Shown here one piece after another: positions 97-20,000 of a DNA stretch of 20,000 nucleotides. The notes below the pieces were generated by a model that saw nothing but the letters and a program-made list of their open reading frames with translations, had not been told where the DNA came from and made no database searches. The stretch's first letter is position 1; each line of letters starts with the position of its first letter. Source of the stretch: an uncultured virus (IMG/VR IMGVR_UViG_3300035660_000549) (taxonomy: Duplodnaviria > Heunggongvirae > Uroviricota > Caudoviricetes); IMG/VR virus record IMGVR_UViG_3300035660_000549. The stretch is one strand, 5' to 3'. A program made the position numbers and the translations under genes.

Positions 97-558
97 TTAT
101 TTTCCTTCTTTTATTTTAACCATTTTGATCTTTATAATCTCATCATAAGAAGTATTCTTCTTCTTGATATGGGACCAGTATAGAGTTATTAATCCAGCAG
201 AATTTAGATTTCCTAGAGCTCCTATATACTTATGAGGAAGGCTTAGGATAGCCACTGGATATTTTATGTATCTAAGGAAGTTGTATAAAGTCCTTTCAGT
301 TAAAGAAAGACTTTTCTTTTCTTTAGTACTCTCTTCTTTTTCTATATTCTTTCCAGAAAATATAGGATTAAAGAATGGACAGATTGTTATAACACTAGGA
401 TCATGTAGCATTGGGTTAAACATTAGGCCAGTGTCTGGGCAATACCACTCTTGTGAATTATTAATCTTCAGAGGATATGGTTTAGTACAATCCATACAGT
501 TATTAGTTATAAATACTCCCTGCCTATCATTCTTGATTCTCTTATTCTTCTTCTTCAA
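97..558 (-). CDS. Hypothetical protein, Cys-containing N-terminus
   Basis: 153 aa ORF, TTG start overlapping the end of the upstream gene. CMDC, CPD and CPF motifs. Confidence 0.6.
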   Translation of the reverse strand: MKKKNKRIKNDRQGVFITNNCMDCTKPYPLKINNSQEWYCPDTGLMFNPMLHDPSVITICPFFNPIFSGKNIEKEESTKEKKSLSLTERTLYNFLRYIKYPVAILSLPHKYIGALGNLNSAGLITLYWSHIKKKNTSYDEIIKIKMVKIKEGK

Positions 559-1456
559 CTACCCAACCTTCCTCACTATTTAGTTTCTGGAAGAATATAG
601 AAGACATTTTCTGATGGTATGTTTTAGAATCTAGGAAATACTTTAATGAATTCATTCTGGTAGGATCTATATCTAATAGATAGAAAGTAGAATCTTTGAT
701 AAATAGATCTACTACTCCATTCCCTAGCATTATTTTATTAACTAGGAGTTTAGCTATTCCTTCTAGGTCTTTTCTATTGACTTCTAATTCTTTAGATAGT
801 TCTATGATTTCTTTCTTTTCTTCTTTTGAAGGTTCTTCATATTTAATTGTTCTAGTATATTGACTTGTAATTCTAATGGCTTCCTTATATCGTGATCCTT
901 CTGGGCAGTATAGAATAGTCTTATCATACTTATAGAATTTATATAGACTTCCAACTACCTCTCCTAGGAATGTATAAATTTCTATTGTTGGAAACCATGT
1001 TTTATCTAGATCTACTTCTAAAGGAGATAGCAAATGGTTCTTCTGCCATTCTGCTATTTTAGTAGAATCTAGGATTGGAAGTTCTTTATCTGTATCATAA
1101 TCTACTAGATATTTAGTATTAGGAATAGTGGAGGAAAAGAATGGTAAAGTATCTATTTCATTCCCTAGAGTAATAAAAAGAGAAGGCTTGTCTTTTACTA
1201 GTTCTAAAGTAGAAGGATATGAATCTAGAAGATATCCTTTCCCTTTTAGAAACTGTAAGTTTCCAGGATTATATTCTGGTCTAAAAATAATACAGGTCTC
1301 TGGGTAACATGCTATATTTGAAGCAGAGAAGAAAGTATTATGCCACTTTACTGATTGTGCATAGATAGGAACTTTATCCAGATCAGTAAATAGTTTGACC
1401 AGATATTCCCTGTCCTCATCCAGAGTACTATATACTAGCAATACTAAGTCTTTCAA
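542..1456 (-). CDS. Divergent RimK-like ATP-grasp protein (possibly inactive or altered)
   Basis: ATP-grasp-like segments: IIFR; SYPSTLELVKDK (NS...a.DK); IEIYTFLGEVVG (DxRvfvvggevv); LGNGVVDLF...FYLLDIDP (lg..gvDll...yvlEvN.P). AGGAG SD before TTG. Confidence 0.6.
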   Translation of the reverse strand: MKDLVLLVYSTLDEDREYLVKLFTDLDKVPIYAQSVKWHNTFFSASNIACYPETCIIFRPEYNPGNLQFLKGKGYLLDSYPSTLELVKDKPSLFITLGNEIDTLPFFSSTIPNTKYLVDYDTDKELPILDSTKIAEWQKNHLLSPLEVDLDKTWFPTIEIYTFLGEVVGSLYKFYKYDKTILYCPEGSRYKEAIRITSQYTRTIKYEEPSKEEKKEIIELSKELEVNRKDLEGIAKLLVNKIMLGNGVVDLFIKDSTFYLLDIDPTRMNSLKYFLDSKTYHQKMSSIFFQKLNSEEGWVVEEEE

Positions 1457-1461
1457 TACTC

Positions 1462-2613
1462 TTAACTCCTATAGCCCTTCAGACCATCCTGTTCATGACC
1501 TAAAAAATAAACTAGGTCAAAGTCTGGATCTTTGTTGTTCTCACTACAACCATGAGTATTGATACACTTTTCACAGTAGAACTTCTTACACCTAGAACAG
1601 AATATAGAAGTCTTCATGTCTACAACTACTTTACACTCTCTACATATACATTTCTCATTCTTTTCAGTCTTCTCTTCTTCCTTGGTTTCCTTCTCTTCTT
1701 CTTCTTTAGTTGCTTTCGGATTTAGATCCTCATAATGTGTTGTAGTCTTATTCTTATGGTAACATTCTATACAACGATCTTTCTCTAAGTTTCCTATCTT
1801 TACTTTCTCACATGGAAGATGATTAGTACCACAGAAATCACAGGATATAATTCTATTGAAGACCCATCCTCCTTCTTTTACTTTAGCTTCATTCCATTCA
1901 CCATATAGTTCTGCTTTGGTCTCTCCTTTCTCTCTCCATATCTTAACTAAGGAAGAAGATTCCTCTGGAATATACAATGTCATACTAGAATCTTTAAAAT
2001 TGGGAGACTTTAAGAATTCTCTTACTCCATCGAATTCAGAAGCAATAATAAAGCTTCTGTCTATCTTAACTAGAACAAATGAAGATTCAGGTATTCCATA
2101 CAGAGTACCATCTTTGAATAGAATAATCATGTTTCCATCTGATAGTGGGTAGAACTTCTCTATTGCTTTTTCCCTAGGATATTTCTTAAGAAGTTCTTCT
2201 AGAATATGTACAAAGATTTCTGTATCTGCTCCAGATTCTCTATTATGCCCTAAAGAATCTAGGAGTTTTCCTACATATTTATAACTGGTAAAGGTACCGT
2301 TGTGGACTAGTGCAAAGTTTCCATTCTCACTTAGAAATGGATGTGCTTCCTTATCTTCTTCCCTATCTACTATATTAGTACTGGCCGATCTGTTATGCCC
2401 AATAGAAATATCAGAATCTACTTTAGATAGATCTCTGGTTACTTCCATTCTAAACTTAAGGGGAGGAATAGCTTTCTTTAGAACAATTATCTTTCCAGAT
2501 TCTATATAAGCTACTCCAGAAGCATCTGTCCCTCTAGACTGTTGTGCTACTATTATATCTAGTATCTTCAGAGGAGCATTCTTTATTCCATATAGACAAC
2601 ATATTCCACACAT
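1462..2613 (-). CDS. Class II (Ntn) glutamine amidotransferase-like protein with C-terminal Cys/His Zn-finger extension
   Basis: N-terminal MCGI (catalytic Cys after Met removal), RGTDASG, IGHNRSAST, EAHPF, LVHNG, DTE. C-terminus has several CxxC pairs and an acidic/Lys linker. Confidence 0.9.
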   Translation of the reverse strand: MCGICCLYGIKNAPLKILDIIVAQQSRGTDASGVAYIESGKIIVLKKAIPPLKFRMEVTRDLSKVDSDISIGHNRSASTNIVDREEDKEAHPFLSENGNFALVHNGTFTSYKYVGKLLDSLGHNRESGADTEIFVHILEELLKKYPREKAIEKFYPLSDGNMIILFKDGTLYGIPESSFVLVKIDRSFIIASEFDGVREFLKSPNFKDSSMTLYIPEESSSLVKIWREKGETKAELYGEWNEAKVKEGGWVFNRIISCDFCGTNHLPCEKVKIGNLEKDRCIECYHKNKTTTHYEDLNPKATKEEEEKETKEEEKTEKNEKCICRECKVVVDMKTSIFCSRCKKFYCEKCINTHGCSENNKDPDFDLVYFLGHEQDGLKGYRS

Positions 2614-2614
2614 T

Positions 2615-3523
2615 CTAAATACATTCTCCTAAATTTAACCAGTCTTCTTTTGTTTTGTAATCATTGTAAATATACTTGCTTTTTATCTTATCATCTTCAA
2701 AGAACTCTTCCCAAGTTATCCTTCCATTAATAAAATCTAGTTCAAATGATTTCCAGTCAAATAGATTATTACAACGGTTACAATAGGAAAATGAAGGGAA
2801 TGTAAAGTCTGGAGCTTTAAGAGAACCACACTTTATACATTCAGTATTTTTAGAAGCATATTCCTCAAAATGTTTTAGATCAAATAAAACTTCAATATTC
2901 TGACTTCTGTTAGAGTTATCGGATGAAGAAGATGTAATTATACTTGGATCGAAGTTCTTAAGGAATTCTTTTAGAATATCCACATCTAGGGATGACAAAC
3001 ATGCATCACATAGAGGAATATCTCTATATGATTTTTGATTACACCTAGAACATCTATTGTATTTTCTCTCTATATCTATCTCGTGAGAGAATGCTGTTAC
3101 TAGGAAATTAATAAACCTAGTTAGAGTATGTTGATCATACATTATACTAGCATCTGTGTCTATCTCAATAAATATATTAGGATTAGGAAGACATGGAACT
3201 ATATTTAGATCAAATTTCTTAGCTAGTAATCCTAGTTCTCTAGTTAATTGTAAACTTGAAGAAGAGACCCGTATTCCTTTTGCATTTAAATAATCCCAGC
3301 TTTTAAAGAAAGAGATATCTTCAGATACTCCTTCCTGTTTGTAATGAAGTGGTCTTCTAGTGAACTTGCGAAGGAGATATGCTGGAATAAATATGTCTAT
3401 GGATTTAGGAACATTGATGGCTCTAGATCTAATTTTCCCTGGGAGAGATGGGCTCTGTACATATTCTGGAAATACTTTAACAGCTTCTAATACTCCTTCC
3501 TTGATTATTTCTTTGTTTATTAT
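2615..3523 (-). CDS. Hypothetical ~302 aa protein with two C-terminal Zn ribbons; extends the tracked 2615..3142 ORF upstream to a probable ATA start
   Basis: Frame of 2615..3142 stays open to 3523 (INKEIIKEGVLEAVKVFPEY...), filling an otherwise empty 378 bp gap. GGAGGA at 3538-3533. The ATA overlaps the upstream TAA stop. CSRC/CDAC and CIKC/CNRC pairs. Confidence 0.65.
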   Translation of the reverse strand: MINKEIIKEGVLEAVKVFPEYVQSPSLPGKIRSRAINVPKSIDIFIPAYLLRKFTRRPLHYKQEGVSEDISFFKSWDYLNAKGIRVSSSSLQLTRELGLLAKKFDLNIVPCLPNPNIFIEIDTDASIMYDQHTLTRFINFLVTAFSHEIDIERKYNRCSRCNQKSYRDIPLCDACLSSLDVDILKEFLKNFDPSIITSSSSDNSNRSQNIEVLFDLKHFEEYASKNTECIKCGSLKAPDFTFPSFSYCNRCNNLFDWKSFELDFINGRITWEEFFEDDKIKSKYIYNDYKTKEDWLNLGECI

Positions 3524-4866
3524 TGTATAGCATCCTCCAGAAGTTGTAATGCAGATAGAAAATTCTTTGAAGGAATAAGATTGCCAGTAAGTTCATCTTC
3601 TTTAACAACATCAAGCATCAGAAGTTTATTTACAAGTCTAGAAGAGAAGAGAGACTGTAGAGATCCTTTAGCTTTCTGTATGGCTGTAATAATATTATGA
3701 AAATCTTTCATATGTGGATCAACCAATAAATCCATTAGATCAATAAACCTCTCTGTAGAAGGGAGATCTTCTATTTTTAGATTGTCTATAATGTCTTTAA
3801 ATTCTTCTATGGAAATATGATCTTCTAGTTTAGGAAGTATGTCATTACCTGGGTTTGGAAGAGAATTAATTATGGGAACTAGATTATAAGAATCTTTAGT
3901 AAGTTTCTGTACAAAGAACCTATATTCTGATTTGTCTTCAGTTCTATTCCATTGTTCTAGGATCTTATCAGATACAGTATTTCCTTCTGCTACTGTTTCA
4001 TAGAAATCAAAGACCTCTTTCTTCAAAGTAGCAGAAACATCTTCTAAGATTTCTTTTAACCTATCTTTGTTAGAAGTGTAGAAACTCCTCCATAACTCTG
4101 TTATTGGAACATATACTTTCTTAGTCTTAATGCCAGAATATGTGATAGAAGAAGGAAGATATATAGGAATTACTGATCTACTTCCATACATTACTACTCT
4201 TTCATATATTTCTTCATTATTGAATACTGGTAAAGATTGATTATCACTATCTTCTAGGAGTAACCTAATAACTCCAGCTATTCCTATTATCTGGAAGAGA
4301 GGACTTGAAGAAGGAATTCTACATTCTAGAGTATCTCCGTTCTCTCCCTTAGCTAGAGCCATCCAGTGATCTCCATTTGAATCTCCAAATTCAGTAAACC
4401 TAGACCATGAAGAGAATGCTAATCTAACATCTGAAGCTCTGTATACTCCTCCAAATATAGGAGAGTTAGCAGATAGAAGAGCTATTAGAGGTTGAGCATT
4501 GAACAAGATCTTACTCATCTCTACCCATGATTCTGGAGACATTCCTTTTAGAGAAGTATGGATATGACCAGAACAGAAGTCATCATAGTATGGATAGTTT
4601 CCTAGTAAAGAATATATCCATTTCTCTTCTTCACATATCCCTAGACACTTTTGAATTACATATGCCAGGTGATCAGCTAATTCTCCCAGTGTTGGATATG
4701 GATCACTAGGAAACTCTGGTTTATTATCATCAAAATAGAAGCGACTGAATATATTTCTAAATTCTCCTTCTGCTAATTGATGATCTCCTTCATATCTTAT
4801 GAATGGAGACTTCTCTATAGGAATTATATTTCCTTCTAGTTCCACACCTTGCTTATTTACCTTGAT
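3520..4866 (-). CDS. Carboxylate-amine ligase, glutamate-cysteine ligase family 2 (GCS2/YbdK-like, glutamine synthetase fold)
   Basis: GVELEG (GxExE), SGHIHTS (GxHxH), LIALLSANSP, SDVR, TLECRIP (TxExR). Start extended from GTG 4845 to ATC 4866, which follows GGAGGA by 7 nt and restores the Gly of GxExE. Confidence 0.8.
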   Translation of the reverse strand: MKVNKQGVELEGNIIPIEKSPFIRYEGDHQLAEGEFRNIFSRFYFDDNKPEFPSDPYPTLGELADHLAYVIQKCLGICEEEKWIYSLLGNYPYYDDFCSGHIHTSLKGMSPESWVEMSKILFNAQPLIALLSANSPIFGGVYRASDVRLAFSSWSRFTEFGDSNGDHWMALAKGENGDTLECRIPSSSPLFQIIGIAGVIRLLLEDSDNQSLPVFNNEEIYERVVMYGSRSVIPIYLPSSITYSGIKTKKVYVPITELWRSFYTSNKDRLKEILEDVSATLKKEVFDFYETVAEGNTVSDKILEQWNRTEDKSEYRFFVQKLTKDSYNLVPIINSLPNPGNDILPKLEDHISIEEFKDIIDNLKIEDLPSTERFIDLMDLLVDPHMKDFHNIITAIQKAKGSLQSLFSSRLVNKLLMLDVVKEDELTGNLIPSKNFLSALQLLEDAIQ

Positions 4867-4878
4867 ACTTTATTCCTC

Positions 4879-5100
4879 CTATAAGGACTTAATACTATTC
4901 TTTTTTGATCCCCTGGAATATGGGGAGAGGATCAGAATTACATCTTTACCTTCTAGACCTTTTAATAATCTGATAGTGGTCTTTAGAGTACTTTCTTTAT
5001 CTTTAGTGAACAGAATACAGCCTTCTCTATCTGTGGTCATTGTTATTCCAGTAATCTTACAATATATTTCTACTGGTCTTTCTTCAGACAAACTATTCAT
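4879..5100 (-). CDS. Hypothetical 73 aa protein within the ligase cassette
   Basis: ATG overlaps the end of the ATP-grasp gene; tightly packed before the GCS2 gene. Confidence 0.6.
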   Translation of the reverse strand: MNSLSEERPVEIYCKITGITMTTDREGCILFTKDKESTLKTTIRLLKGLEGKDVILILSPYSRGSKKNSIKSL

Positions 5101-5962
5101 CTCTTCTAATTATACATCTAATTCTAATTGGTAAATTAATCTTGTTTATTCCTTCATTTGATCTCAACCAGGGATAGTCTTCTATCTTAGGTTGATCACC
5201 TAGGATTCCTTCTTTGAATAAGAAATCTTTGATAATAAAGGAATATAACTGTCTTCCAAATTTGTTCAAACGTACTGCTGAGTTCGCTTCTAGAATATAT
5301 GGTACACCTTCTTCAGATACTATTACGTCTATTCCTCCAAAGTTTATTCCTAGAACTTTAGAAGCTTTGATACATTCTTCAATTATTTTCTCTTCTAGAG
5401 GATAATCATGTTCATATATATCTGATAGAATGTATCCATGATCCACATTTCTAATCCAGTATTCTCCTCTAGTTGGTACTTTCTTCTGTATTCTAATAAC
5501 TTCATTGTTGAATAAATGAACTCTATATTCTCTAGTAGAATAGATATACTCTACAAAATAGTCTCCATCCACTCCATTTAGCTGGAGTCTATCATCCACT
5601 CTAATAATGTCTCTTCCCCTACTATGAAATCTTAGTCTGCTCAACACTGGAAATTTATGAGAAGGAATAGTTTCTTTCCTAGTGTAAACTATAGGAGTTC
5701 TAATTCCATTCTCTAAAAGAAACCTAGAACATCTTAGCTTGTCTTTAACTAGGTTTACTACTTTAGAGTTGTTTAATACTATTTTAAATCTCCATTCTCT
5801 TCTAGGACTGGAAGATACTCCATATCTAATCAGACAGTCTCCATTCTCTATCCCAGATAGAGTATTGATAGGGGTAAACCCGGAATATTCAGCTAGTTTT
5901 CTTCCTGTAGGCTTAGAGTAAAGACTAGACTCCATAAATGTTAAGAGATAGATATTTGCCAT
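5093..5962 (-). CDS. RimK/YheCD-like ATP-grasp peptide ligase
   Basis: LIRYG, VLNNS...VKDKL, GIRTP, FPVL, HSRGRDI, YFVEYI, EYRVHLF, WIRN, LGINFGGIDVI, PYILEANSA (intact ExN). Confidence 0.9.
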   Translation of the reverse strand: MANIYLLTFMESSLYSKPTGRKLAEYSGFTPINTLSGIENGDCLIRYGVSSSPRREWRFKIVLNNSKVVNLVKDKLRCSRFLLENGIRTPIVYTRKETIPSHKFPVLSRLRFHSRGRDIIRVDDRLQLNGVDGDYFVEYIYSTREYRVHLFNNEVIRIQKKVPTRGEYWIRNVDHGYILSDIYEHDYPLEEKIIEECIKASKVLGINFGGIDVIVSEEGVPYILEANSAVRLNKFGRQLYSFIIKDFLFKEGILGDQPKIEDYPWLRSNEGINKINLPIRIRCIIRRDE

Positions 5963-6243: not shown

Positions 6244-6654
6244 TTATTCTTCCTTCTTTCCATTCTTCTTTCCTTCCTTAGGATATATGTACCACTTGTC
6301 TTCTATAGAATTCAATCTTAGAACTATACACTCTCCAAACCTTCCAGAGAATTTAATATTCCCATTGAACCCCATCGAAAGGAGAGAGTCTATAAATATC
6401 TCTATACTAGAAGGATTCAACCGCATTATTTCAGATTCAAATAGGAGAATAGAAGGGTCTCTATCTGGTCCTGTAAAAGAATATACTTTCCCTTTGAATG
6501 CCTCCAGTCTTCCTTTTATTTTCTTTTTACAAGCAGGACATCTTTGTTCCTGGATCTCCATATATTTCTTCTCTTTATCTGATTTGATATTTAGAATTGC
6601 CTGGGTTCTCTTACCACAGTAACCACAATCAAATATTTGAAGGTACAATACCAT
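6244..6654 (-). CDS. Hypothetical protein with N-terminal Zn ribbon
   Basis: CGYC...CPAC; GAGG SD. Confidence 0.7.
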   Translation of the reverse strand: MVLYLQIFDCGYCGKRTQAILNIKSDKEKKYMEIQEQRCPACKKKIKGRLEAFKGKVYSFTGPDRDPSILLFESEIMRLNPSSIEIFIDSLLSMGFNGNIKFSGRFGECIVLRLNSIEDKWYIYPKEGKKNGKKEE

Positions 6655-6867: not shown

Positions 6868-7089
6868 CTAGATCTTAGGAAGTTTATCCTTTATCTTTAC
6901 TATAGTCTGGTTAGGAATAGGAGTGTTACAGTAAGGACATAGAATAATAAATTCTTCTCTAATATCTCTCCTAGGGTTCTCTACAAAATATGTTCCATCT
7001 CGTCTAAGAGTGTATGTACCAATACTATGGTACTCCTCTCTTACCTTATCTAGAGACTTCTTACAGTTTGGACAGATCACTTCTGACAT
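6868..7089 (-). CDS. Small Zn-ribbon protein
   Basis: CPNC...CPYC; archaeal-type AGGTGA SD. Confidence 0.75.
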   Translation of the reverse strand: MSEVICPNCKKSLDKVREEYHSIGTYTLRRDGTYFVENPRRDIREEFIILCPYCNTPIPNQTIVKIKDKLPKI

Positions 7090-7098
7090 ATTATCACC

Positions 7099-7446
7099 TT
7101 AAAGATTCCTATTTGATATGATGATCTTTTTCTTAATCTTATATATCTTTTTACATTTAGGGCATTTAACTAGAAACTGTAAAACTTCTTTTACAAGTTT
7201 AGAAGAAGATATCAATCTATGTGGATTCTCATAGACCTTGTAGATTAAAGGAGAGAAGGTATGTTCACAACTAGGGCATATATTAGAAGATATAGTTGGA
7301 ATATTTCTTCTTCCTTTATCTAAACGATAATCAAATAGTATGCCTATGTCTTCTACTCCTAGTCTGTGTAAATGGAGATGAATGACCTTTAGCTTCTTGG
7401 GTACAAATTCATTACAGACTAGACATCTTTCCTTATACTTAGCCAA
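7099..7446 (-). CDS. Double Zn-finger protein (C2H2-like plus Zn ribbon)
   Basis: CLVC-x12-HLHLH, then CPSC...CPKC; GGAG SD before TTG. Confidence 0.7.
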   Translation of the reverse strand: MAKYKERCLVCNEFVPKKLKVIHLHLHRLGVEDIGILFDYRLDKGRRNIPTISSNICPSCEHTFSPLIYKVYENPHRLISSSKLVKEVLQFLVKCPKCKKIYKIKKKIIISNRNL

Positions 7447-13331: not shown

Positions 13332-13853
13332 ATGAAGACCTGTAAACTATGTTTATCTCCTAATAGAGTGGAATATGAAGAGATGAGGTTCAAGAAGAAT
13401 AAGTCTATTAAAGAGATATGGACCTATGCTTCTTCTGTTAAAGGAGAGAATATTAACTACTATGTATTCCAGAGACACTTCTATAAGATGATGGATGGTC
13501 TGGATGCTGTACATAAATCTTCTAAACTAAGGAATGATATTATAGAAGAAGAGATAAAGAAAGACATAGAGATCTCCCAGAGGCTTAGAAGGAACCTAGA
13601 GATATGTGCAGACAATATAGAGAAGTATGCTAAGAGAGATGATCTAACTGTAGAGGAAGAGAAATCTTTACTAGATTTTATAGGGAAGACTTCTCTAATA
13701 ATAGATGAACTATTGAAATGGTCTAAGCAACTAGACTTCAAACCTAAGAGTGAAGACATATTTGAAAAGATCCTTTATTGTATACATGACTTTCCAGAAC
13801 ATTTAATAGAGAAGTTCAAAGAGAGATGGACATCTTATGGCTCTTCAAGTTGA
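13332..13853 (+). CDS. terS: Probable terminase small subunit
   Basis: Directly upstream of and overlapping terL. Likely start MKTCKLC at ATG 13332; CxxC...RH N-terminus then helical region. Confidence 0.6.
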   Translation: MKTCKLCLSPNRVEYEEMRFKKNKSIKEIWTYASSVKGENINYYVFQRHFYKMMDGLDAVHKSSKLRNDIIEEEIKKDIEISQRLRRNLEICADNIEKYAKRDDLTVEEEKSLLDFIGKTSLIIDELLKWSKQLDFKPKSEDIFEKILYCIHDFPEHLIEKFKERWTSYGSSS

Positions 13854-15126
13854 TGAAGTAAAAAAGGCCTTAACTTTCCTATCTTGGTATAAGAATCCTT
13901 CTTCTTTCTATAGAGATATCTTCAATGAAGAGCCATATCCTTACCAGGCTAAAGTATTAAATACAATAAGGGAATATCCTAAGAGAACTATGCTTATGTC
14001 TGCTTCTGGAACTGGCAAGACTAAACTTCTAGCTTGTATTACTCTTCTCCTAGGAGTAGTATTTCCTAAGTTTCTAAAGACCCCTCTTTCTATAATTATA
14101 ATATCTGGAAGTAGAGACCAGGCTAGGAATCTTTACGAATATGTTAGATTAGCATTTAAAGATTCCAATATCCTAGCACAGGAAGTAGAAGGAGAACCTT
14201 TAATGAGTATTACTAGACTCCATGATAGGTCTGTAATCCTAGCTGTACCCAATTCTCTTAAGGCTATTCAAGGTAAACATTGTGATATTGTGATCATCGA
14301 TGAGGCAGTTCTAGCTGGAGACTTTATTATTAGAGATGCTTATAGAATAGTGTCGCAGTCTAAGAATGATATGATACTATTGTCTGGTACTCCTATGGAT
14401 GAACCTGGAGGAGAGTTGTTTGTAGAGATGTGGGAGGATGAAAAGAAATATCCAGAGTGGATCAGACATCACTGGACGGCCAGAGAGTGCCCTAGGATTA
14501 GTTTAGACAAATACACTGAAGCCAGTAAGGATCTCCCAGAGGATATGTTTTCGATCTTTTGGCAGGGCAAGCCATATCCTAAACTAGGTTCCCTAATTCC
14601 TATAGACAAACTTAAAGAATCTTCTAGAGACACTCCCCATTTAGAATATGACCCCAATGGAGGAAGAGTAGTTGCTGGGATCGACTGGGGTTGGAGAGAT
14701 TTTACAGCTTTAGTTATTCTACAATATAACAAAGAAGAAAACTTAGTGAAAATATTATTTTCTGATCAGTGGAATCTAGAACAATTTGAAGATCTACATA
14801 ATAGAATATCGAAGATATGTAAAGATTATAAGGTCTCTATTATATATGCTGATGCAGAAGATGTAGGAGAGAACCAGAGATTAGAAGCTAGGGGCCTGAA
14901 TGTAGAACCTATAGGATTCAACCAGAACAAGATTATAATGCAGACTAGACTCAAACTAATGTTCCACCAGAAGAAGATAAAGATTCCAGAAGACTCTACT
15001 GAATTACTAACAGAACTTAGGAAGTATAACTGGGATACTGCTAAGGGAGAGGACCTAGTTGATGCTCTAATGCTAGCATTGTATAAGGAAGAAGGAGAAC
15101 CTAGCTATTTCTATAAAGTAGTCTGA
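13837..15126 (+). CDS. terL: Terminase large subunit
   Basis: PYPYQ (Q motif), SASGTGKT (Walker A), IVIIDEA (Walker B), LSGTP (motif III), GIDWG and EDLVDAL (RNase H-like nuclease). Confidence 0.95.
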   Translation: MALQVDEVKKALTFLSWYKNPSSFYRDIFNEEPYPYQAKVLNTIREYPKRTMLMSASGTGKTKLLACITLLLGVVFPKFLKTPLSIIIISGSRDQARNLYEYVRLAFKDSNILAQEVEGEPLMSITRLHDRSVILAVPNSLKAIQGKHCDIVIIDEAVLAGDFIIRDAYRIVSQSKNDMILLSGTPMDEPGGELFVEMWEDEKKYPEWIRHHWTARECPRISLDKYTEASKDLPEDMFSIFWQGKPYPKLGSLIPIDKLKESSRDTPHLEYDPNGGRVVAGIDWGWRDFTALVILQYNKEENLVKILFSDQWNLEQFEDLHNRISKICKDYKVSIIYADAEDVGENQRLEARGLNVEPIGFNQNKIIMQTRLKLMFHQKKIKIPEDSTELLTELRKYNWDTAKGEDLVDALMLALYKEEGEPSYFYKVV

Positions 15127-15323
15127 GATTCTTTTAGGAAACTTAGAATATTTTTAAGACCATAATATAAAGAAAATACTCCATTACATATTAACATAGA
15201 TCCATCGATGAATCCAGCTCCAGTAAAAACTTGTTCAAAAGTTAAAACTATAACCTTTAATCCAATTCCAATAGAGAATGAACCAAGAAGAGAAATTAAA
15301 AAGAACCAGAAAAGTTTATCCAA
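15111..15323 (-). CDS. Small two-TM membrane protein
   Basis: 70 aa with two hydrophobic segments; overlaps the tail gene stop and converges on terL. Confidence 0.55.
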   Translation of the reverse strand: MDKLFWFFLISLLGSFSIGIGLKVIVLTFEQVFTGAGFIDGSMLICNGVFSLYYGLKNILSFLKESQTTL

Positions 15324-18300
15324 AATAACTTCCAGTTATAACTCTAATATATCTCTCATACATATCTAAACTTGATAAACATGAAGCTCCATATCTTAGT
15401 GAAATTGTATGAATACCAGTTGTTAAGATAGTATCTTCAATCATTGTAATATTATCACATCTATCATAATTATATTTCTCTTTTATGAAAATATGATTTA
15501 AAGATGTTCCATCTACATATATCGACCAATCATAATATTGAGGAGGAGGACTAAGAAAATGAATAGAAGCATTGCATCCAGAAAATATTATTGCTTTTGC
15601 ATTGTAATCTAAAGTACATGTTAGAAAGATAGCTGTACCAGCAGCTACAGTTGAATTAATTGTATTTATTTCCTTACTATAGTAGAAGTCAGGCATCCAT
15701 CTGTCCCTAGCAGTAGTATTGTCTACAAAGCTGGTAAGCTGGTTGCCTTTAACAATCATACAATCATCAAAGCAGAATGTGCCTCCACCTCTAGAATATA
15801 TACTGGGTTTAATGAATGGCTTAGCAGGATCAACAGTAAAGGTTCCATATGCTTGTGTCCAGGTAGAAATAGTAAACACTCCTCCAGTATTTACTTCTCC
15901 TCCATATACCCCTCCAGTTCCAAGTGCATCAGAAGCCTTAACATACCAGAAAGAAATGCCAGGGCTTGTTCCAGGTACTGTCCCCTTCCACCATATAGAT
16001 AGAATAAATGAAGATGCTCCAGCCATATTAATATATGAAGGATAGTCCTCATAGGTCTCAACAGTATTAGTTGTAGCAACTCTATAACATCTACTCCCAG
16101 AATGACTTTCAACAGTAGAACTTGTTCCTAGTCCACTTCCCCATCTTCCATATTCAAATCCAGGATTGACTATCTCATTCCAGCCTATAGGAGGCTTAAC
16201 TAGTCTATCATAACTAATAGTTAATGTATTGATATTATTGTTCTGGATCACATTGTTGCTTGCAATAGAGATCAAAGATAATGTAGATATTGAACTTGAG
16301 CCAATCACTAAGTTTCCTGTATTAGTGATGTTAGTAAAGTTGAGTGTACTATTCTGGAACAACACATTATCTATTGTGCCAGCATTCAAGTCTATATTAT
16401 TAATAGTTGCAGAAGATATTACTAGATTACTAATACTTCCTATGTTGAATCCAACAGAATTACCAGATAGAGTTCCTACTTGCATATTTGTTATTGTTCC
16501 AATATTAAATTTAATTGAATTGCCAGTAATGGTTCCTGCCTGGAAGTTAGTTAATGTTCCTATATTGAAACTTAGACTATTACCAAATATAGTTCCAGCC
16601 TGGAAAGATGTTATTGTACCTATATTAAATCCAATAGAGTTTCCTGATATGGTTCCAGTCTGGAAACTAGTTATGGTTCCTATATTAAATGATATACTAT
16701 TTCCAGATATGGTACCAGCCTGAAAGTTAGTGACTGTACCAATATTAAATTGTACAGAGTTTCCTGATATAGTTCCAGCCATAAATGTAGTAATTGTTCC
16801 AATGTTAAATTGAATACTGTTCCCTGAGATAGTGCCAGATAAAAAGTTAGTAATTGTTCCAACATTATAGTTTATGCTTGTACCATAAATATTTACTATT
16901 GTTCCAGCATTGGCAACTAGAGTACCATTCACATTTGCATATAGACAAACTAGATTATTGACATTGGCTATAGTACCAATATTAGCAGTAATAACATTTA
17001 GATTGTTTATAGTGTTAGATATTGTACCAACTGTCAAGTTTCCAATATTGCCAGCATCGATATTAAAATTGACTATCTGGTTACCAGATACATAATGAGA
17101 TCTCTCTCTGAATCCCATATATACAGATTTAATTTCATCTTCTGAAAGGGCTCTATTATAGATTCTAACTTCATCAATAGTACCTTTAAAGAAATAACTA
17201 GAAATATATCCTATCTTCAATGGAAAAGTACCCGAGTCAATGTTACCAGTTGCACTCTCTCCAATATACTGTACTCCATCATAGTAACCTACTACATATG
17301 TACCATCATAAGTCATAGCAACATGATGCCATTCATTAATAGGTAACACTGGGAAAGCAATAGGATCATAAGTATAAACATCATGTATTGTTCCTCCAAT
17401 ATAGATTCCTAGACATTGTGCTCCACTAGAATCAACCCACCAGAAGTACTGATTCTCTTTACCAATAGGTCTTGGCCAGGTACTTGCTGCAATTGTTCCT
17501 CTTTTAACCCATGCCATCATAGTTATTCTAGTAACATTCAAGGTACTAGTATTAGGTACCTGGACATAATCATTTATACCATCAAAATACAGAGCATTAC
17601 CAAACTTTCCTGTAGTAAAAGATGCTCCAGATATTGATCCATTATTATCATTGCTACTATAATCCTTAGCATCATCATCAAAGGGCATATCAAGGACCAG
17701 ACCATAGCCAGAAGTTGGTAATACAAAGTTTATCTTGTCAATATTAATGGCTAGATCAGCAATGTTTCCTGCTCCTAATGAGAATCCACCAGATAGTGCA
17801 TTAATACTGGCATTAATAACATTCAAGTTCTGTATAGAATTTATTGTACTTATAATTGCTGTTATAGCATTAAGATTAGTTAGAGTATTAGATATAACTC
17901 CTATACTGGCATTAGTAGCAAATAGATTAGTAAGAGTTAGAGTACCAATTCCTCCAATAGAATTGGACCATAGATTCGTTATAGTTGCAGTCCCAATACT
18001 TCCAAGTGTATTAGCATTTAATATTCCTACACTAAGAGAGTTCACTCCAGAAATAGTGTTAGAGGTTAAGATTCCTATAGTAGCTGTCCCTATACTTCCT
18101 AGAACACTAGCATTAACTATTCCAGCTGTAAATGTTGCTATACTACTTATTTGACTTATGTTTGCCACATTAGCATTTAGAACTCCTACTGTATTGATGG
18201 TACCTACACTCATATAACCAGCAGATATAGATCCAACAGTACCGATAGTACCAATATTAGCTGTTCCAATAGTGTTTATTACTCCGATAGAATTGATCAG

Positions 18301-20000
18301 ATTAGCACTCATAGTACCTATATTGTCTATCTTACTAATACCGAAACTACCTCCAGATGCTACATTGATATTAAAAGACCCTATCGAAACTGATCCATTC
18401 CAGTAGGAATAGTCTGGAACTTCCACTTCTGGATTGTTTATAATAAATGTTACATTGTTAAAGTCTTCATCCATTAAGTTGGCTCTTCTTTTAAGTTTGA
18501 CAACTTCATCCATTACTTCCTTAGACTTCTGTGCTCTTTCTCTAATAGGATTCCTAGCTGGAGAAGAAGACAGTACTAGTTTCGTCTTCCAGTCGGATCC
18601 ATCAAATTCATCATTTATCTCTTTTACCTGGAAGGACTTTGTCTCATTGTCTAGAGTTATTGTATACCTATAACCTAAATATACAGAACTAGTACCTTCT
18701 AAAATTAGGTCTCTAACTGATTCTTCTGCCTCAGAGACCTTGGAGAGTTCTTTATAACCTGTACTTTGTAATTGTGAAGTAGAAAGATCTTTATAATATG
18801 ATTTGGAAGGGACATGCTGTCTAATACCATATGATATAGTATTAGCATTGTACACATCAACAATTGCATATCTACTAAAATGGAGACCGTCTACAGCAAT
18901 ATTTCTACCATATGCTCCTCCACCAGCTAAATAGAATGATATCCATTGTAGTACTGTTCCATAATCTCCTTCTACATTCCAGTCTGGTGACATAGTTCCA
19001 TATTCATCTTTGATTGTTATATTTTTAGAAGTCCAAGAGATAGAACTATCCCAGTTTACTCCTCCTATTTCTCCAGGATCCCATTGGGTAAAGATATATC
19101 CTGGGAAAGAATCTGGATTACTCAAATCATATTGTGATAAAAGAACATACATCCTAGGATGTCCTGCCAATAGAGGAGGAATCAAATATCCACTTTTATA
19201 TAGGTTACCTATTGCAAACTTGACTTTGATCCCAATATCCGTTGCTAGAGTTAAAGGATCAATGCTCCTTGCCATATAAACAGCATATTCTGTTTCGCCC
19301 TCTCCAATCTTGGATCTAACAGAATAAGTTCCTTCTTGTGGATTGTAAGTTGATATACCCAAAGAAGAACTAGTCCAACCAGTAAACATATCTGGCTTAT
19401 ATTTAACTGACCATCCTACAGTAGATTCAGTATATTTGTCTGTGCCTTCATATTTAGTATCTACTCCATATATTCTCAAGTAGTTCTTCACAGATTCTAT
19501 AGAGGAAATCCTTTCTTTGGAAAGAAGTACACTGAGAGATGTAGAAGTTGTATTGTAGTCTCCCTTGAAGAAATATACTGTTCCTCCTGGAGAAGTATAG
19601 AAAGATATAGAAGAGTTCTTACATAGATTCTCTATTGCATCAGAAACATTGACTGCATCATTCTTGTCTATAGAGATACTTTCTCCTGGACATTTAGTAT
19701 AGTCTCCTACCAGGCTAGTATATGAAAGGTACCTAGCCAAAGCAACTGTATCGACTTCTACTGTTTCTCCTATAGCTATTGCTTTCTTACTTGCTTCAAA
19801 GAATGGACCATATGCTTGGTATTCCCAGGTAACCAGATCCTGGCCTGTTTTCATATTTCTCCTAGTGACTATTTCTCCCTTGAACGCTTCTAGAGAATCA
19901 GCTCCTCTCAAGAATGATATAGTGACATAAGAAGCTAGTGGAAGGGAAGTATCAACCCCCTGGAACTGGAACTTAGCATTATCCCAGCCATCGAGTACTC
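15316..20000 (-). CDS. Giant modular tail/adhesin protein (>1560 aa, 5' end outside window)
   Basis: Frame open past 19911 to the window edge (VLDGWDNAKFQF...). G/N/I/T/S-rich beta-helix repeats; LamG domain ~17117-17703 (GNALYFDG..DYV, WHHVAMTYDG, FKGTIDEVRIYNRALS); CBM-like domain ~15745-16180 (IVNPGFE...FDD). Confidence 0.85.
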   Translation of the reverse strand, partial: VLDGWDNAKFQFQGVDTSLPLASYVTISFLRGADSLEAFKGEIVTRRNMKTGQDLVTWEYQAYGPFFEASKKAIAIGETVEVDTVALARYLSYTSLVGDYTKCPGESISIDKNDAVNVSDAIENLCKNSSISFYTSPGGTVYFFKGDYNTTSTSLSVLLSKERISSIESVKNYLRIYGVDTKYEGTDKYTESTVGWSVKYKPDMFTGWTSSSLGISTYNPQEGTYSVRSKIGEGETEYAVYMARSIDPLTLATDIGIKVKFAIGNLYKSGYLIPPLLAGHPRMYVLLSQYDLSNPDSFPGYIFTQWDPGEIGGVNWDSSISWTSKNITIKDEYGTMSPDWNVEGDYGTVLQWISFYLAGGGAYGRNIAVDGLHFSRYAIVDVYNANTISYGIRQHVPSKSYYKDLSTSQLQSTGYKELSKVSEAEESVRDLILEGTSSVYLGYRYTITLDNETKSFQVKEINDEFDGSDWKTKLVLSSSPARNPIRERAQKSKEVMDEVVKLKRRANLMDEDFNNVTFIINNPEVEVPDYSYWNGSVSIGSFNINVASGGSFGISKIDNIGTMSANLINSIGVINTIGTANIGTIGTVGSISAGYMSVGTINTVGVLNANVANISQISSIATFTAGIVNASVLGSIGTATIGILTSNTISGVNSLSVGILNANTLGSIGTATITNLWSNSIGGIGTLTLTNLFATNASIGVISNTLTNLNAITAIISTINSIQNLNVINASINALSGGFSLGAGNIADLAINIDKINFVLPTSGYGLVLDMPFDDDAKDYSSNDNNGSISGASFTTGKFGNALYFDGINDYVQVPNTSTLNVTRITMMAWVKRGTIAASTWPRPIGKENQYFWWVDSSGAQCLGIYIGGTIHDVYTYDPIAFPVLPINEWHHVAMTYDGTYVVGYYDGVQYIGESATGNIDSGTFPLKIGYISSYFFKGTIDEVRIYNRALSEDEIKSVYMGFRERSHYVSGNQIVNFNIDAGNIGNLTVGTISNTINNLNVITANIGTIANVNNLVCLYANVNGTLVANAGTIVNIYGTSINYNVGTITNFLSGTISGNSIQFNIGTITTFMAGTISGNSVQFNIGTVTNFQAGTISGNSISFNIGTITSFQTGTISGNSIGFNIGTITSFQAGTIFGNSLSFNIGTLTNFQAGTITGNSIKFNIGTITNMQVGTLSGNSVGFNIGSISNLVISSATINNIDLNAGTIDNVLFQNSTLNFTNITNTGNLVIGSSSISTLSLISIASNNVIQNNNINTLTISYDRLVKPPIGWNEIVNPGFEYGRWGSGLGTSSTVESHSGSRCYRVATTNTVETYEDYPSYINMAGASSFILSIWWKGTVPGTSPGISFWYVKASDALGTGGVYGGEVNTGGVFTISTWTQAYGTFTVDPAKPFIKPSIYSRGGGTFCFDDCMIVKGNQLTSFVDNTTARDRWMPDFYYSKEINTINSTVAAGTAIFLTCTLDYNAKAIIFSGCNASIHFLSPPPQYYDWSIYVDGTSLNHIFIKEKYNYDRCDNITMIEDTILTTGIHTISLRYGASCLSSLDMYERYIRVITGSYFG
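16441..16860 (-). repeat. Seven degenerate 60 bp tandem repeats (20 aa unit GTITxFQAGTISGNSIxFNI)
   Basis: Consecutive 60 nt lines 16441-16860 align with each other; the protein shows the same period. Confidence 0.9.

Follow-up and report, generated by a model that had tools for sequence, protein, structure and literature searches.

What the viral genes in one tightly packed, probably amide-bond-forming cassette make or modify, and in which host, is the question raised by a stretch of 20,000 nucleotides from an uncultured virus (IMG/VR record IMGVR_UViG_3300035660_000549; hereafter the window, meaning the whole of this stretch). Six genes, g1 to g6, occupy positions 542-5962 of its minus strand. 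They are best read as a divergent, rearranged variant of the known phage amidoligase cassette, carried by a probably archaeal virus, an assignment that we regard as fairly likely. Also fairly likely, taken as a whole, is the reading that the six genes are co-translated and that their enzymes build and edit glutamate-type amide bonds on one substrate. The genes, with their predicted products, are the following.

5093-5962, minus strand: g1, 289 amino acids, RimK-type ATP-grasp amide ligase of the phage type
4879-5100, minus strand: g2, 73 amino acids, small conserved protein matching no known family
4875-4879, minus strand: ribosome-binding site of g3, GGAGG, 8 nt upstream of an ATC start, as read from the sequence
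3520-4866, minus strand: g3, about 448 amino acids, YbdK/GCS2-fold carboxylate-amine ligase with a C-terminal domain
2615 to about 3523, minus strand: g4, about 297-302 amino acids, N-terminal domain without family match, and two Cys-pair Zn-ribbon motifs
1462-2613, minus strand: g5, 383 amino acids, class II (N-terminal nucleophile, Ntn) glutamine amidotransferase domain with Cys clusters
542-1456, minus strand: g6, 304 amino acids, highly divergent ATP-grasp-fold protein, possibly non-catalytic

All six genes abut or overlap, every junction being an overlap or a gap of at most 12 nt, which bears out the compact, co-oriented arrangement described in an earlier interpretation of the letters alone (the sequence-only reading). 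The amide-bond-enzyme signatures which that reading had assigned to four of the genes were also recovered, namely ATP-grasp, GCS2/YbdK, class II amidotransferase and a second ATP-grasp fold. The catalytic domains of the RimK-like ligase and the Ntn glutaminase are intact, that of the YbdK-like ligase is apparently so, and one further ATP-grasp is degenerate; all of them are inherited together.

The g1 product is a predicted intact RimK-type ATP-grasp ligase. It passes the Pfam RimK profile (PF08443; 28.7 bits, E 1.2e-6, cut-off 21), its closest family is phrog_2599 (E 3.2e-31), and the profile of its family (12 members) matches RimK in the PDB at 6.6e-6. All 12 sequences share K75, R109, H113, E145, K161, E225 and N227, and g1 has the ATP- and Mg-binding residues of the RimK/MptN/LysX family. 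Every NCBIfam equivalog scores it well short of the curated cut-off, including TIGR00768 (4.7e-13, 49.1 bits, cut-off 143.4) and the tetrahydromethanopterin:glutamate ligase MptN (E 5.9e-10). A further difference from the RimK/MptN/LysX family is that no gene close to g1 encodes an acceptor of the bS6 or LysW type whose acidic C-terminus is conserved.

In the g5 product a glutaminase domain with an N-terminal Cys, predicted to be intact, is joined to no synthase domain; two putative Zn-binding Cys clusters follow it instead. Its first ~230 residues match GATase_6 (42.5 bits, cut-off 27), it matches phrog_13807 at 4.2e-15, and its family profile aligns from residue 1 with the glutaminase domains of GlmS/PurF (4.7e-13). 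The N-terminus reads Met-Cys-Gly; neither this nor the motifs R-G-x-D, H-N-R and N-G vary among the 11 sequences compared (C2, G3, R27, G28, D30, H73, N74, R75, N105, G106). Equally invariant (11/11) are the Cys pairs C258/C261/C281/C284 and C324/C327, which lie where a synthase domain would be; GlmS, PurF and AsnB, in contrast, carry a fused synthase (acceptor) domain at this point. NCBIfam amidotransferase profiles cover only residues 1 to ~205, at 20-68 bits against cut-offs of 267-418.

It is through g1 and g5 that the cassette is tied to bacteriophages. By tblastn, 229 of 50,697 phage records match g1, among them those of Kuravirus, PA11-like and Vibrio phages. In the Shigella phage SGF2 (Kuravirus) and Pseudomonas phage PA11 the corresponding cluster runs COOH.NH2 ligase, amidoligase, glutamine amidotransferase and ATP-grasp, with a gamma-glutamyl cyclotransferase added in SGF2; both clusters adjoin primase/helicase genes and have DNA polymerase genes nearby. 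Profile-profile comparison (hhalign) of the g1 family with the ATP-grasp proteins of SGF2 and PA11 gave E values of 3e-21 and 1.3e-26, and of the g5 family with their amidotransferases 3.7e-9 and 2.7e-11, in agreement with the link to phiEco32-like phages drawn in the sequence-only reading. Further g1 matches were found in a genome collection, where the two nearest, on contigs of bacterial metagenome-assembled genomes (MAGs; L029 and L030), are followed by amidoligase and amidotransferase genes.

The phiEco32-type amidoligase cassette was reportedly first set out by comparative genomics by Iyer, Abhiman, Burroughs and Aravind in 2009, in Mol Biosyst 5:1636. It resembles that of the window in being virus-encoded, co-oriented and tightly packed, with small family-less proteins interspersed, in holding a homologous RimK-type ATP-grasp and at least one glutamine-synthetase-fold ligase, and in encoding a class II amidotransferase that is homologous to g5 and bears Cys-x-x-Cys motifs C-terminally; its PF14395 ligase, in addition, is present in two relatives of the window. 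The two differ in gene order and, probably, in host. No PF14395, Amidoligase_2 (PF12224) or cyclotransferase (GGCT/AIG2) match was obtained among the 22 window open reading frames (ORFs) scanned, g3 itself reaching 12.6 bits against the PF14395 cut-off of 25, and Amidoligase_2 and GGCT/AIG2 were likewise missing from 58 ORFs of four relatives; the window ORFs represent 20,000 nucleotides of a contig of roughly 77 kb. The glutamine-synthetase-fold ligase of the window belongs instead to a YbdK-like GCS2 subfamily with a C-terminal domain, and the window adds g6, a second ATP-grasp that is degenerate, as well as the Zn-ribbon protein g4 and the small g2. The proposal that the cassette is a distinct variant is upheld by these differences.

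This ligase, g3, has the YbdK/glutamate-cysteine-ligase fold with its conserved motifs apparently intact. The sequence scores 17.4 bits against Pfam GCS2 (PF04107), under the cut-off of 21, and 16 of 22 family members match that profile at E<=0.1 (best 2.3e-6). The AlphaFold model (mean predicted local distance difference test, pLDDT, 87.9) has a glutamine-synthetase-type ligase fold and, by structure comparison, is closest to YbdK; GshA (19.5), Dop (19.4), PafA (17.9) and glutamine synthetases (~15) score lower. Identity to the YbdK/GCS2 ligases and plant glutamate-cysteine ligase (PDB 1r8g, 1tt4, 2gwc; PF04107) is 14-15%, and the Pup ligase PafA and deamidase Dop (PDB 4bjr, 4b0r, 9cku) are far weaker matches than YbdK. 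E2 and E4 are nearly invariant, and H94, H96, N127, P129, R141, E174 and R176 are invariant in 22/22 sequences; these probably correspond to the catalytic positions of YbdK. N127 and P129 belong to the LSANSP motif pointed out in the sequence-only reading, which is therefore real.

From the YbdK/GCS2 ligases g3 differs by its sub-cut-off Pfam score, its viral origin, its rarity and an extra domain. The ligase part spans residues 1 to ~320 and is followed by ~110 residues (~330-448) that lie outside all structural matches and show a helix-helix-helix-hairpin-helix pattern. Atlas scores for this C-terminal domain do not exceed 0.81 and include several winged-helix families, a hint that it may be a winged helix, to be taken as a lead only.

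Searches of the PDB with g3, by sequence and by profile, gave nothing significant, and no relative was detected in the viral contig collection (single sequence and profile) or in one genome each of 185,579 species. In a collection of 5.8 billion proteins the family amounts to 22 clusters. A hidden Markov model search of 1.84 billion representatives returned 59 sequences at E<=1e-3, 31 of them at E<=1e-30; the tail of the list holds a shorter viral paralog and then proteins that pass PF04107, which the family profile reaches only at E 6e-8 to 8.5e-4. On these sequence comparisons g3 is classed as a rare GCS2 subfamily.

The second ATP-grasp protein is of a different standing. No sequence-family match for g6 was found in Pfam or PHROGs, and nothing significant in the PDB with the single sequence or the profile. 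A three-domain ATP-grasp fold was recovered in a model built on a nine-sequence alignment, of moderate confidence (pLDDT 68.8, predicted template modelling score 0.74) and poor at residues 103-146. The g6 and g1 family profiles align colinearly but weakly (E 8.8e-4, probability 23%). At the E-x-N metal site the window has D-I-D and its relatives, in a low-confidence alignment, D/N-x-V/E/S/N/Y, which gives D/N-x-D/V/E/S/N/Y for the family; the Mg/ATP ligands (E-x-N with the partner Asp/Lys) are thus not conserved, and only P52, D78, L97, Y120 and K191 are invariant. The claim of two ATP-grasp paralogs stands as to the second fold, but g6 is at most a remote paralog and lacks a conserved E-x-N site.

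The sequence-only reading had named co-occurrence in related genomes as a test, and the order g1-g2-g3-g4-g5-g6 does recur among 25 metagenomic loci that carry g3 relatives (32-93% identity; numbered with the prefix L). Upstream of g3 and on the same strand, g1 is found in 15/15 loci with at least 850 bp of upstream sequence, and g5 lies downstream in 12/12 loci with at least 1,300 bp on that side. An ORF of 270-380 amino acids separates g3 from g5 in 11/11 loci read, resembling window g4 in 8 of the 10 compared, and a g6-like ORF of ~300 amino acids directly follows g5 wherever there is room (8/8 loci; three recognized by tblastn, five by position and transitive BLASTP). Of the 23 loci that extend 200 bp or more upstream of g3, 17 have a g2-like ORF immediately before it (11 recognized by tblastn and 6 more by ORF reading), and the remaining 6 have other small, partly Zn-ribbon, ORFs at this position. 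Insertions also occur. In L004 a PF14395 gene (phiEco32-like COOH-NH2 ligase; 29.5 bits, cut-off 25) stands between g1 and g2 and has a homologue in L019, and a second GCS2-like paralog is present in L006, L007, L017, L021 and L022.

The two small or family-less partners of the enzymes are less easily placed. For g2 no match was found in Pfam, PHROG, PADLOC, NCBIfam or PDB; in an alignment of 15 sequences K33 and L46 are invariant. For g4, which likewise resembles no known family or solved protein, Pfam and PHROGs gave only weak, sub-threshold double-zinc-ribbon or Zn-ribbon matches, and Atlas nothing (score 0.75). Either protein was considered as a Pup- or LysW-like carrier and rejected, the C-termini being not conserved and having no acidic or Gly-Gly-Gln/Glu end. 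The Pup-PafA system differs in that g2 neither conserves a C-terminal Gly-Gly-Gln/Glu nor shows detectable similarity to a protein of solved structure. Loci of the most distant clade encode, at the position of g2, a Zn-ribbon protein of ~120-130 amino acids whose C-terminal tail is strongly acidic (L008:1467-1865, L009:3-389, L010:697-1095). By analogy, these acidic-tailed proteins are reminiscent of the acceptors of RimK- and LysX-type ligases.

Two gene boundaries of the sequence-only reading had to be revised. The start listed for g3, GTG at 4845, is replaced by ATC at 4866-4864, 8 nt past the GGAGG at 4879-4875, which overlaps the g2 stop codon; homologues have ATG at the aligned start, four residues ahead of a conserved Gln-Gly-x-Glu-x-Glu strand. 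The 377-bp gap between g3 and g4 is coding and corresponds to the N-terminus of g4, which rules out a non-coding interval there. Followed upstream, the reading frame of g4 stays open as far as 3592 and has no ATG, GTG or TTG before 3142, and full-length window g4 aligns with its L004 homologue over residues 6-284 (E 3.6e-21) and with that of L003 at 1e-18. Because the frame is open and the extension aligns with full-length, ATG-started homologues, g4 is assigned ~300 amino acids and an ATA or ATC start, located within 3523-3505, at least 10-13 nt downstream of a GGAGG.

Isoleucine codons (ATC, ATA or ATT) shortly after a GGAGG-like site recur as apparent starts of several cassette genes whose orthologues have ATG: at 4864-4879 and 3505-3538 of the window, at L001:418, L014:2478 and L017:7800, and in phage SGF2 (L028). 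In L017 an ATC immediately precedes the catalytic Cys of g5, and g3 of L014 begins with ATA. In SGF2 the amidotransferase frame reads stop-AAA-ATT-TGT(Cys) upstream of the annotated start; the annotated GTG would seem to be ~27 codons too late, and the true start is probably the ATT.

Several observations weigh against the cassette being a phage-type amidoligase system with a single joint product. The profile of g3 does not match the COOH-NH2 ligases or amidoligases of SGF2 and PA11 significantly (best E 0.022), g3 has no tblastn match in any of the 50,697 phage records, and the PF14395, Amidoligase_2 and GGCT/AIG2 genes of the phage cassette were, as stated, not found in the scanned window ORFs. 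Since the metal-site residues of g6 are not conserved, catalysis by this protein, and with it a predicted fourth catalytic step, is doubtful. The conserved acidic or Gly-Gly-Gln-type C-terminus of a Pup- or LysW-like carrier is missing from both g2 and g4. The winged-helix interpretation of the g3 C-terminal domain, a model-based suggestion, draws on secondary structure and Atlas scores below 0.9. The 25 relatives all belong to one virus lineage and are colinear beyond the cassette, and therefore synteny within it does not prove functional linkage. Finally, passages of papers from 2023 and 2025 describe the function of the phage cassette as still unexplored (PMC10580990, PMC11706807); the same passages repeat a cell-wall or superinfection-exclusion idea, attributed to Iyer et al. 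2009.

If the domains act together, the most likely chemistry, by analogy with their relatives, would be a stepwise ATP-dependent ligation of gamma-glutamyl type together with amidation or trimming; nothing found here runs counter to the broadly hedged functional proposal of the sequence-only reading. The g3 ligase would convert a carboxylate to its acyl phosphate and join it to an amine, the most likely carboxylate being, by analogy with the nearest structural relatives of g3, the gamma-carboxyl of glutamate, and g1 would add one or more further amino acids onto a free carboxylate, as RimK, MptN or GshB do. For g5 two roles may be envisaged: glutamine-derived ammonia could amidate a carboxylate activated by a ligase, or the enzyme could hydrolyse a gamma-glutamyl link, as does the stand-alone class II enzyme EgtC. 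In this scheme g6, g4 and g2 would be non-catalytic or specificity subunits, or the carrier or target itself.

As to the substrate, we lean towards a macromolecule, that is a viral or host protein or, less likely, a nucleic acid, over a free metabolite; this is the weakest step of the argument. The leaning follows from the Zn-binding or winged-helix-like appendages on three enzymes or partners and from g2, with its invariant lysine, lying beside g3. Other hints in this direction are that RimK, an enzyme with a protein substrate, is among the best relatives of g1, and that the g5 Cys clusters do not vary.

In structure g3 comes closest to enzymes of small molecules, and a metabolite pathway is therefore still a strong rival, if a somewhat unlikely one. 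In such a pathway a glutathione-like compound, a gamma-glutamyl-amine or a glutamylated cofactor would reprogram the redox, polyamine or cofactor pools of the host, with g3 acting as a gamma-glutamyl ligase like GshA or EgtA, g1 extending the product like GshB, CofF or MptN, and g5 either trimming it like EgtC or amidating it. Ergothioneine synthesis (EgtA/EgtC) combines a GCS-type gamma-glutamyl ligase with a stand-alone hydrolase of class II amidotransferase fold, and glutathione synthesis (GshA/GshB) a GCS-type gamma-glutamyl ligase with an ATP-grasp second ligase, a combination of folds which, so described, is shared with the window cassette. The matches of g1 to MptN and to the RimK family fit this rival, as does the gamma-glutamyl cyclotransferase of the bacteriophage cassette, an enzyme of free gamma-glutamyl compounds. 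Against it, no cyclotransferase was found in the ORFs scanned in the window or its relatives, and no methyltransferase, sulfoxide synthase or other partner of the EgtA/EgtC or GshA/GshB pathways among the scanned ORFs. All NCBIfam equivalog scores are far under their cut-offs, and the window enzymes, unlike those of the two pathways, bear Zn and helical appendages; the Zn-cluster tails of g5, the C-terminal domain of g3, g4 and g2 have no obvious role in making a soluble metabolite.

The nature of the host bears directly on the target. The sequence-only reading had supposed a probable archaeal virus, and an archaeal host is indeed quite probable. Searches for relatives of g3 and of the large terminase subunit (TerL) brought up only two organism labels, both archaeal: one g3 homologue is assigned to an Ignisphaera MAG and one TerL homologue to a Thorarchaeota MAG. 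Identity of TerL to the proteins of catalogued phages does not exceed 25%, and its best-covered match is an Altiarchaeum virus. Relatives of the window encode a protein with an eRF1 domain and ERCC4 nucleases, the latter also with a helix-hairpin-helix (HhH), which are proteins of archaeal or eukaryotic type. A bacterial host is unlikely on this evidence; the cassette would then be another copy of the peptidoglycan modification module of phages and the archaeal labels would be binning artefacts. Such a host would accord with the homology of the g1 and g5 families to bacteriophage proteins, with the strong GGAGG ribosome-binding sites, which are compatible with bacteria, and with the 17 g1 matches in the genome collection, which all fall in bacterial records (identity at most 39%, mostly 22-30%). 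Opposed to it, besides the labels, the TerL comparison and the genes of archaeal or eukaryotic type, is the lack of any g3 relative in the one-genome-per-species set. For archaeal viruses, searches of the literature brought up genes of this kind only in a Poseidoniales-virus paper (amidoligase and glutamine amidotransferase) and a haloarchaeal-virus preprint (two ATP-grasp genes).

Within the favoured reading of an amide-building cassette acting on a macromolecule, a more specific version can be formulated, and we hold it to be doubtful: a protein-tagging machine, with versions common to bacterial and archaeal viruses, in which g2, through its invariant lysine, or a host protein would be gamma-glutamylated by g3, extended by g1 and amidated or trimmed by g5, with g6 and g4 as catalytically dead adaptors.

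That the cassette modifies nucleic acid, placing an amino-acid or amide group on viral DNA bases or on RNA and so shielding the genome against nucleases of the host, while the Zn-ribbon and winged-helix-like parts would bind DNA or RNA, is improbable. In the relatives the cassette does lie within a non-structural block, beside ERCC4 nuclease, RNA ligase and metallophosphoesterase genes, the bacteriophage cassette adjoins replication genes, and the C-terminal domain of g3 may be a winged helix; however, no hydroxymethylase, base kinase or transglycosylase was found nearby in scans of the ORFs of the window and relatives, and ATP-grasp and GCS2 enzymes are not known to act on DNA bases. It is very improbable that the six genes serve different substrates and are neighbours by lineage colinearity only: such colinearity does continue past both ends of the cassette in the five relatives with the longest sequence, but ATP-grasp, class II amidotransferase and glutamine-synthetase-fold ligase genes are also adjacent in unrelated bacteriophages and on two bacterial-MAG contigs, and the genes inserted in the relatives are further ligases of the same superfamily (PF14395 in L004, the second GCS2 paralog in the five loci named above).

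The rest of the window holds these features.

13837-15126, plus strand: large terminase subunit (TerL), Terminase_6C 5.4e-10, phrog_2 1e-30
15316-19998, minus strand: ORF of 1,560 amino acids that continues past the window end, with a Laminin_G_3/concanavalin-like lectin domain at residues 806-957
6244-6654, 6868-7089 and 7099-7446, minus strand: small Zn-ribbon proteins upstream of g1, colinear neighbours
97-558, minus strand: g0, 153 amino acids, Cys-rich, directly downstream of g6, of uncertain cassette membership

TerL together with the Laminin_G_3 protein, the latter probably a tail fibre or adhesin, identifies the window as that of a tailed virus. Seven of 66 TerL relatives (P0031, P0032, P0036, P0038, P0053, P0055, P0060) measure 727-746 amino acids against ~425 for the rest, and one of the long ones contains the intein/LAGLIDADG Pfam domains PF14528 and PF14890, which suggests that inteins may reside in the terminase genes of this virus lineage. 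The cassette is part of a minus-strand gene block that runs unbroken from ~13,100 down to 97. Between 5963 and 12340 the block contains more than 20 small minus-strand ORFs (50-150 amino acids), many with Cys-x-x-Cys pairs and with weak Zn-ribbon Pfam matches. The three upstream Zn-ribbon genes are kept in the same order in L004, L006, L007, L019 and L021 (tblastn). Although g0 has no Pfam or PHROG family match, tblastn matches to it occur downstream of the g6 position in L004, L009, L010 and L021; a PADLOC match of g0 to Cas6 (E 0.0038) was discounted as meaningless, and PADLOC gave no other defence-system match. The G+C content of the window is 29-38% in 1-kb windows, and no transfer RNA genes were found in it.

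Genes near the cassette in the relatives encode eRF1 domain-1, ERCC4 (+HhH) nucleases, nicotinamide phosphoribosyltransferase, RNA ligases, a radical-SAM enzyme and metallophosphoesterases (L021:273-764, L019:13170-13832, L006:12064-12711, L021:18461-19882, L006:15084-16106, L006:12988-13674).

The phage amidoligase cassette is present in hundreds of bacteriophage genomes, to judge from the records with a g1 homologue, and has been annotated for more than 15 years without a known product or target. The comparison with the window separates the parts that are kept across a very large evolutionary distance, a RimK-type ATP-grasp, a class II amidotransferase with Zn clusters and a glutamine-synthetase-fold ligase, from those that are interchangeable, namely the PF14395, Amidoligase_2 or YbdK-like ligases and the cyclotransferase. 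It also adds four uncharacterised families (g2, g4, the g3 subfamily and g6), which are candidates for subunits that give specificity or serve as carriers. If the host is truly an archaeon without peptidoglycan, this would argue against the cell-wall hypothesis repeated for phiEco32. On the doubtful protein-tagging reading, such a host would make the label of peptidoglycan modification wrong for all cassettes of this family, whose shared target would be of a universal kind, for example part of the translation, replication or nucleotide machinery. A confirmed archaeal host would constrain the possible targets of the entire family.

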